A DNA stretch of 410 nt from Escherichia coli (GTDB lineage Bacteria > Pseudomonadota > Gammaproteobacteria > Enterobacterales > Enterobacteriaceae): assembly GCF_003334305.1 (NCBI RefSeq), contig NZ_QOWS01000078.1. One strand, given 5' to 3'. Position numbers and translations under genes: made by a program. This document shows positions 1 through 410 of the stretch, in pieces. The notes beneath the pieces are model-generated. The model was given only the letters and a program-made list of their open reading frames with translations, ran no database searches and was not told where the DNA came from. Numbering within the stretch: position 1 is the stretch's first letter; the number at the start of each line of letters is the position of its first letter.

Positions 1-410
1 CTGGATATCGATATCCCGTATGCGACGGACCCGGCAGGAAACCGGCTGCCGGACCCGGAACTGCACCCGGACAGCACGCTCACGGCGTGGCCGGATAACC
101 GCATCGCGGAAGATGCGCACTATGTCTACCGCCACGATGAATACGGCAGGCTGGCGGAGAAGACGGACCTCATCCCGGAAGGGGTTATCCGGATGCACGA
201 CGAGCGGACCCACCACTACCATTACGACAGCCAGCACCGTCTGGTGTTCTACACGCGGATACAGCACGGCGAACCACAGGTGGAGAGCCGGTACCTCTAT
301 GACCCGCTGGGCCGCCGGACGGGAAAACGGGTATGGCGGCGGGAGCGTGACCTGACGGGGTGGATGTCGCTGTCGCGTAAACCGGAGGAGACCTGGTACG
401 GGTGGGACGG
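1..410 (+). CDS. Rhs-family / YD-repeat protein, conserved core region (internal fragment, partial at both 5' and 3' ends; frame 1, codon 1 = nt 1-3)
   Basis: Seen in sequence: frame +1 is open for all 136 complete codons with no stop. Codon usage is typical of a real enterobacterial-type gene (ctg, ccg, gcg, acg, cgg preferred). The translation contains three canonical YD-repeat motifs and the stretch [38 protein letters not shown], which I recognise from memory as the late core of E. coli Rhs proteins (RhsA/B/C-type). High GC (about 64%) fits Rhs cores. The paralog cannot be assigned from 410 bp, so no gene symbol is given. Confidence 0.93.
121..153 (+). other. YD-repeat motif (protein-level) [11 protein letters not shown]
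   Basis: Frame +1 translation of nt 121-153 gives [11 protein letters not shown], a variant of the Rhs/YD repeat consensus (Y.YD..GRL). Confidence 0.75.
217..243 (+). other. YD-repeat motif (protein-level) YHYDSQHRL
   Basis: Frame +1 translation of nt 217-243 gives Y-H-Y-D-S-Q-H-R-L, matching the Y.YD...RL repeat pattern. Confidence 0.75.
292..318 (+). other. YD-repeat motif (protein-level) YLYDPLGRR
   Basis: Frame +1 translation of nt 292-318 gives Y-L-Y-D-P-L-G-R-R, a near-consensus YD repeat (Y.YD..GR.). Confidence 0.8.

Follow-up and report, generated by a model that had tools for sequence, protein, structure and literature searches.

The 410-nucleotide stretch of Escherichia coli DNA analysed here (the window) is an ordinary internal core segment from a T6SS-linked Rhs toxin gene of E. 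coli. With high confidence we explain it as a Clade I rhs core at the T6SS-1 locus, repeated by expansion of the rhs family and shaped by exchange of segments among paralogs. The family, the locus and the behaviour of the window are all already known, and its annotation is ordinary.

The window encodes an internal piece of the Rhs core

Translation of frame +1 (positions 1 to 410, plus strand) ran without a stop from end to end. The 136 amino acids of the window matched positions 909 to 1044 of the 1261 in NCBIfam NF041261 (RHS_core), a curated model titled 'RHS element core protein', with an E value of 1e-92, and the same stretch is present at 100% identity in the genome of GE3. A Pfam search with the 136-aa fragment alone returned RHS_repeat matches below threshold only (E ~4). 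Because Pfam falls below its threshold on so short a piece, the identity was settled by NCBIfam.

Multiple YD repeats (YxxDxxGR[LIV]) characterize members of the family, and four motifs could be read in the plus-strand translation of the window. The one at 19–48 (aa 7–16) is YD-repeat-like, fits YxxDxxGxxL and lies below the Pfam threshold on its own. The other three coincide with sub-threshold RHS_repeat matches: 121–153 (aa 41–51; match at aa 42–56), 217–243 (YHYDSQHRL, aa 73–81; match at aa 72–82) and 292–318 (YLYDPLGRR, aa 98–106; match at aa 96–108). The window holds about four YD repeats, which are degenerate. No direct repeats were found inside it, and no Rfam family matched either strand at a permissive threshold. 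A single weak inverted repeat (23 nt, 78% complementarity) is regarded as a product of chance. Two mechanical ORFs in other frames were set aside as by-products of the GC-rich coding frame; the GC content of the window is 64.1% and its GC3 is 80.9%.

The host gene is the T6SS-linked rhs at position 1

The window occurs at 100% identity in 60 or more complete E. coli chromosomes, each time under a feature annotated as RHS core protein, and roughly 170 complete genomes match it at 99% or more. In GE3 the exact copy lies at L001:12001-12410 inside the CDS at 9271-13506, where it makes up gene nt 2731–3140, or codons 911–1047 of a 1411-aa Rhs protein. The exact match occupies the same codons of a 1411-aa gene in STN0717-20 and 13P460A. 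In all three genomes the locus reads hcp, vgrG, rhs, a small ORF (130 aa), ISAs1 (H-repeat), yafV, ivy and fadE, and vgrG stands directly 5' of rhs in these genomes and in Sakai, which links the gene to a T6SS. The dnaQ-fadE locus is rhs position 1 of Jackson et al. 2009 (PMC2935791), and the GE3 host gene is the position-1, T6SS-1-linked Clade I rhs between dnaQ and fadE. GC content at this locus was 63.5% over the whole core, 43.7% in the C-terminal tip and 32.6% in the downstream ORF; a GC-rich core with an AT-rich tip is the classical pattern of an rhs gene.

The closest known system is the E. coli Clade I rhs family itself (RhsA-I of Hill; Jackson positions 1–11). Its O157 Sakai member at position 1, ECs_0237, is the orthologue of the host gene and has the same locus and the same order of hcp, vgrG, rhs, immunity gene and ISAs1. 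The window differs from it at 11 of 410 positions (97.3% identity) and from the Sakai orphan by somewhat more (95.6%). The C-terminal tip of ECs_0237 is different; nothing essential differs.

The full GE3 protein scored 2618.9 bits against RHS_core (cut-off 2000), and TIGR01643 (YD_repeat_2x) matched it in six stretches with an E value of 2.6e-46. The Rhs-associated core domain (TIGR03696) was found at aa 1181–1258 and closes with PIRYTDPLGL at 1249–1258, so that a core ending in PxxxxDPxGL, followed by a variable tip and a downstream ORF, is present in this protein, outside the window. At the N-terminus, DUF6531 matched with an E value of 3e-19 and PAAR weakly, with an E value of 0.12. The C-terminal tips of the rhs paralogs are unrelated to one another (36–50% identity). 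From these features the position-1 gene is predicted to encode a PAAR-Rhs T6SS effector.

Solved relatives of the GE3 protein include Tse5 of P. aeruginosa (8cp6, E value 2e-122), RhsA of P. protegens (7q97) and Tre23 of Photorhabdus (7pq5), with homology over the YD shell at E values down from 8.5e-42 to that of Tse5. They resemble it in having a PAAR-type N-terminus and the DPxGL cleavage motif, but come from other species and carry other toxins, and the position of the window in the shell is read from alignment. The alignment with RhsA spans query residues 310–1084 and includes the window codons. Judged by this alignment, the window probably belongs to the YD-repeat shell, and its repeats would contribute to the beta-sheet that surrounds the C-terminal toxin of a PAAR-Rhs T6SS effector.

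The tip of the GE3 and STN0717-20 genes (L001:13045-13506, aa 1259–1411) gave a weak Pfam match to YkuD (L,D-transpeptidase; E value 3.4e-5). It reads TMGC where the motif of Tlde1 and the L,D-transpeptidases has (S/T)HGC (PMC9638812). The downstream 130-aa ORF (L001:13484-13876) has a lipoprotein-like signal (…LVIGC…). A YkuD-like tip next to a lipoprotein-like ORF would suggest an Rhs-fused peptidoglycan toxin that acts in the periplasm, with its immunity protein. A search of PDB sequences with the toxin tip returned nothing meaningful (best E value 0.79).

The window family is repeated across E. coli genomes

Copies were counted in 5,426 complete E. coli genomes. Megablast placed the window at 10,357 sites in 3,720 of them (1–6 each, median 3), and blastn at 25,057 sites in 3,900 (1–11 each, median 7). 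The window family is unquestionably multi-copy, well above what chance would give, and the original prediction, which took the window for a core fragment of a multi-copy rhs family, is borne out by these medians and by the NF041261 match. The repetition is between loci, with no second match of the window within its own gene. Among the first 30 genomes with an exact match, megablast found one place in one genome, two in eight, three in nine and four in twelve; blastn found five to nine places in each of the 30. Plasmid-borne places of the family numbered 13 by megablast and 17 by blastn.

This repetition very probably reflects nothing but expansion of the rhs family to several chromosomal loci of E. 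coli. The copies fall into diverged sub-lineages; that of the window is typically represented once, and many strains add a single 97%-identical copy, located at yncG-pptA in another rhs linked to vgrG. We give practically no credence to the idea that an IS or a transposon carried the segment around. Copies of ISAs1, the H-repeat, do flank rhs loci, but the nearest lies 1.6 kb from the window, which sits in the middle of a 4.2-kb ORF and has neither similarity to a transposase nor terminal repeats. The copies also occupy conserved chromosomal loci, and this anatomy already refutes carriage by a mobile element.

Most copies of the window are diverged

To judge how alike the copies are, we compared the window with those of GE3, of which six out of eight were located by synteny. 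Besides the window itself at position 1 (100%), the closest is the full-length, vgrG-linked rhs at position 6 (yncG-pptA), 1,318,012 bp away on the same strand, at 97.3% identity with 11 mismatches. A pseudogene resembling rhsE/ydcD, 6.5 kb downstream of the window, matched at 89.6%; in GE3 and 13P460A only window positions 143–410 align to it, and positions 1–142 have no counterpart because the pseudogene lacks about gene nt 2294–2872. The remaining located copies were rhsD (85.1%, longest exact run 22 bp), rhsC (81.5%) and a ybfO-like fragment (81.2%), and the other blastn-level places are presumably of rhsA/B type at ~81%. An assignment of the third megablast place in GE3 to rhsD was rejected on the basis of its 85.1% identity and 22-bp run; that place is in fact the rhs at position 6.

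The differences between the window and position 6 are unevenly placed. All 11 fall within window positions 78–333 (at 78, 133, 170, 186, 189, 222, 270, 273, 276, 291 and 333), and two of them change the protein (H45Y and L57R). Positions 1–77 are identical and belong to an 83-bp exact run at gene nt 2725–2807. Positions 334–410 are likewise identical and begin a 176-bp exact run at gene nt 3064–3239 that continues past the window. The longest exact run inside the window is therefore 77 bp. A minimum of roughly 25 bp, attributed to Shen and Huang (1986), is reportedly enough for RecA-dependent exchange. By the measure of copies at least 95% identical with long exact runs, GE3 has such a partner, whereas STN0717-20 has none at the megablast level.

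At its K-12-rhsE position (yncH...pptA; L012:7770-14643, 1.584–1.591 Mb), GE3 carries a frameshifted vgrG and then the full-length rhs. The ORF that follows this position-6 gene is named 'RHS element protein dsORF-h1' by NCBI.

How close a paralog lies thus depends on the strain. It could be argued that the genome from which the window came is effectively single-copy for it, with no paralog close enough to attract reads or to recombine, so that no hazard applies. We regard this as rather unlikely. In its favour, STN0717-20 has the exact window and a single megablast place, its four further copies being detected by blastn only, and one or two places were found in nine of the 30 genomes given above; in two of those with two places (ST540 and AZ147) the local 89.6% pseudogene is absent. 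Against it, 21 of the 30 have three or four places, and the exact 97.3% variant of position 6 is present in four of the first six exact-window genomes in database order (GE3, 2013C-3181, H15 and D5).

The original prediction had also expected several near-identical cores. This describes K-12, the classical pairs of the 'hot spot' literature being members of the same family and carrying the same stretch: rhsA and rhsB are identical over it, as are rhsD and rhsE, and rhsC stands at 98.5%, giving 98.5–100% within subfamilies. It does not describe the variant in the window, which matches K-12 rhsD/rhsE at 90.2% and rhsA, rhsB, rhsC and ybfO at ~81%, and whose best paralog is the 97.3% partner in GE3, a strain-dependent one, with the others at 81–90%. 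For this variant the expectation was overstated, as many strains have a single 97% partner and some have no such partner. The opposite case, a window present in single copy, does not hold for the family overall, with its median of three places, but does hold for STN0717-20 at the megablast level.

Rhs paralogs have probably exchanged core segments

The similarity between GE3 position 1 and its relatives changes along the gene. Over nt 392–2130, position 1 and the downstream pseudogene agree at 94–100% and have exact runs of 301 and 371 bp in common, while the identity of position 1 to position 6 is only 63–78%. Over nt ~2690–3330, position 1 is ~97% identical to position 6. A maximum chi-square analysis of 687 informative sites placed a breakpoint at nt 2268–2274, and none of 1000 permutations reached the observed value. 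When the Sakai and K-12 genes were added, position 6 proved to be rhsD-like (94–100%) over nt 1–2400 and position-1-like over nt 2600–3400. In the patch that contains the window, the position-1 genes of GE3 and Sakai and the position-6 gene of GE3 all resemble one another at ~97%. GE3 and KFu022 carry the identical window with different tips and immunity genes attached.

These comparisons support the view that rhs paralogs have exchanged core segments and that the host gene and the position-6 gene are mosaic; we infer homologous recombination as the probable origin of the mosaicism. The ~97% of the patch equals the divergence between the GE3 and Sakai position-1 orthologues, whereas the 5' two-thirds of the gene are 63–78% identical between positions 1 and 6. 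That the window marks a 3'-core patch of ~0.6–1 kb common to positions 1 and 6 at allele-level divergence, 1.3 Mb apart, is a proposal to which we give even weight.

Strong purifying selection, acting in place of recombination, might be thought to have kept the patch at 97%, given that so few of the differences change an amino acid (2 of 11). We consider this very improbable. The same patch is 77–86% identical in rhsD and 78–82% in the rhsA/B/C group, which means that the segment is not universally constrained. There are nine synonymous differences in the patch as against 63–78% nucleotide identity in the 5' half; selection at the protein level cannot produce such a step in identity, and the breakpoint is significant.

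Under the exchange model that we favour, the similar core DNA would let paralogs and downstream orphan fragments swap 3'-core and toxin segments by homologous recombination (C-terminal displacement), and such exchange would account for the visible mosaicism of the host gene and of the position-6 gene. The pattern in GE3 agrees with the model of C-terminal displacement put forward by Jackson et al. 2009 (PMC2935791). The same authors reported that cores cluster by locus and that recombination of cores between loci is 'infrequent (if any)', a statement that sits uneasily with the GE3 mosaic.

A comparable arrangement is known in Salmonella Typhimurium, where experiments showed recombination between the main and orphan rhs over 522 bp of 95% identity, which swaps the tips (Koskiniemi et al. 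2014, PMC3967940). GE3 shares with it the layout of a main gene and a downstream copy with long exact runs. It differs in that the block shared by main and downstream copies is the 5' and middle core (nt 392–2130) and not the window, and in that the GE3 case is known from sequence only.

The downstream copy belongs to a K-12 rhsE-like element at GE3 L001:16214-19874 (L014 in 13P460A, same coordinates), which sits 3' of the main rhs within the T6SS-1 locus and not at the K-12 rhsE position. The element contains the rhs pseudogene, ydcD, a yncO-like ORF and two ISAs1 copies. It lacks ~580 bp of core, one edge of the gap falling at window positions 142/143. A stretch of 672 bp in the element differs from the middle core of the main gene at only one position, and the two copies lie ~7 kb apart as direct repeats. 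The element is thereby a plausible substrate on which deletion or the swapping of tips could occur. The entire element is missing from STN0717-20.

Large rearrangements through rhs cores

The rhs elements owe their name to a recA-dependent unequal crossover between rhsA and rhsB, selected in the laboratory for duplication of glyS (Lin, Capage and Hill 1984, in the account of PMC2935791). The historical part of the original prediction, that rhs genes were first identified as mediators of RecA-dependent rearrangement, agrees with that account. Their role as rearrangement hot spots in nature was discounted by Jackson et al. 2009 (PMC2935791), who found no rhs-mediated rearrangement reported in natural genomes and took the original phenotype for an artefact of selection; our data support segmental exchange instead.

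We think it improbable that rhs cores are true hot spots in nature at which RecA-dependent crossovers give rise to large duplications, deletions and inversions. The laboratory duplications speak for such a role, as do positions 1 and 6 of GE3, direct repeats separated by 1.3 Mb that share the exact runs of 83 and 176 bp described above. Against it stand the missing natural case in the literature covered by Jackson et al. and the 1.3 Mb that lie between positions 1 and 6, the deletion of which would presumably be lethal. Furthermore, two deletions that do end in an rhs core have 2–5 nt of microhomology and their other end in tssM, and are not homologous events.

These two deletions, of 20,393 and 19,815 bp (~20 kb), are independent; in each, a truncated tssM is fused head-to-head with a position-1 rhs that lacks its 5' end. 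They were found at L136:9886 (Ecol_AZ147), L137:9886 (ST540) and L013:7372 (KFu022). In the coordinates of the GE3 record, one joins 248135 to 268529 and the other 249199 to 269015, entering rhs at nt 616 and nt 1102, respectively. Both take out tssA through vgrG and leave the window in a pseudogene remnant. The junctions share only 'TA' as microhomology, and both read GCAGG(A)TACCGG. The 3.8-kb core contains five TACCGG sites, and the two rhs-side breakpoints fall precisely on two of these, which may be a coincidence. In ST540, Ecol_AZ147 and KFu022 the exact window thus lies in a 5'-truncated remnant with neither vgrG nor PAAR and no link to a T6SS, and effector function would be lost.

Read mapping and assembly

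Reads from the window were modelled against the 97.3% position-6 paralog of GE3. With 50-nt reads, 17% of start positions gave a read identical to the paralog. None of the 100-nt reads was identical (1–6 mismatches), and 150-nt reads had 2–8 mismatches; in GE3, reads of at least 100 bp always differ from this paralog. The exact runs of 83 and 176 bp exceed the k values common in de Bruijn assembly, and shared runs of 77–176 bp can confuse k-mer assemblers. A comparison of Illumina and Nanopore data reported a recurrent Illumina-only, false-positive SNP in ECs_0237 at Sakai position 270,595 (PMC6703438). On the current record this is gene nt 3517, ~0.4 kb 3' of the window homologue, although coordinates may shift slightly between versions. 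The anticipated hazard of mapping and assembly is real in part: the false SNP in the orthologue and the shared runs speak for it, and the constant mismatches of reads of at least 100 bp against it.

We also examined public metagenome contigs carrying a 40-mer of the window, 120 among the matches listed. Four of their 215 true ends fell inside the window, in a set that has no matched single-copy control; ~34 lay in sequence of rhs-core type, 30 in vgrG and 39 in ISAs1. Four ends in the window compare with 69 in vgrG and ISAs1 together among these 120 listed contigs. In these metagenome assemblies, again without a matched control, the window is no conspicuous break point, and contigs break mainly at the neighbouring vgrG and ISAs1.

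Seven of the listed metagenome contigs carried two copies of the 40-mer, one in the main gene and one in an orphan or second rhs (e.g. L040, L065, L066, L073, L075 and L077). The window homologues in these double-copy contigs were 71–95% identical to each other, in the five pairs measured in full.

Implications

Those who map reads or call variants in E. coli would do well to mask rhs cores or to confirm them by long reads. The hazard depends on the variant and on the strain, and for the segment in the window it stems from one 97% paralog. For the biology of the family, these results restate the known picture, in which the repeated rhs core serves as a substrate for the swapping of toxin tips among paralogs and orphan fragments.
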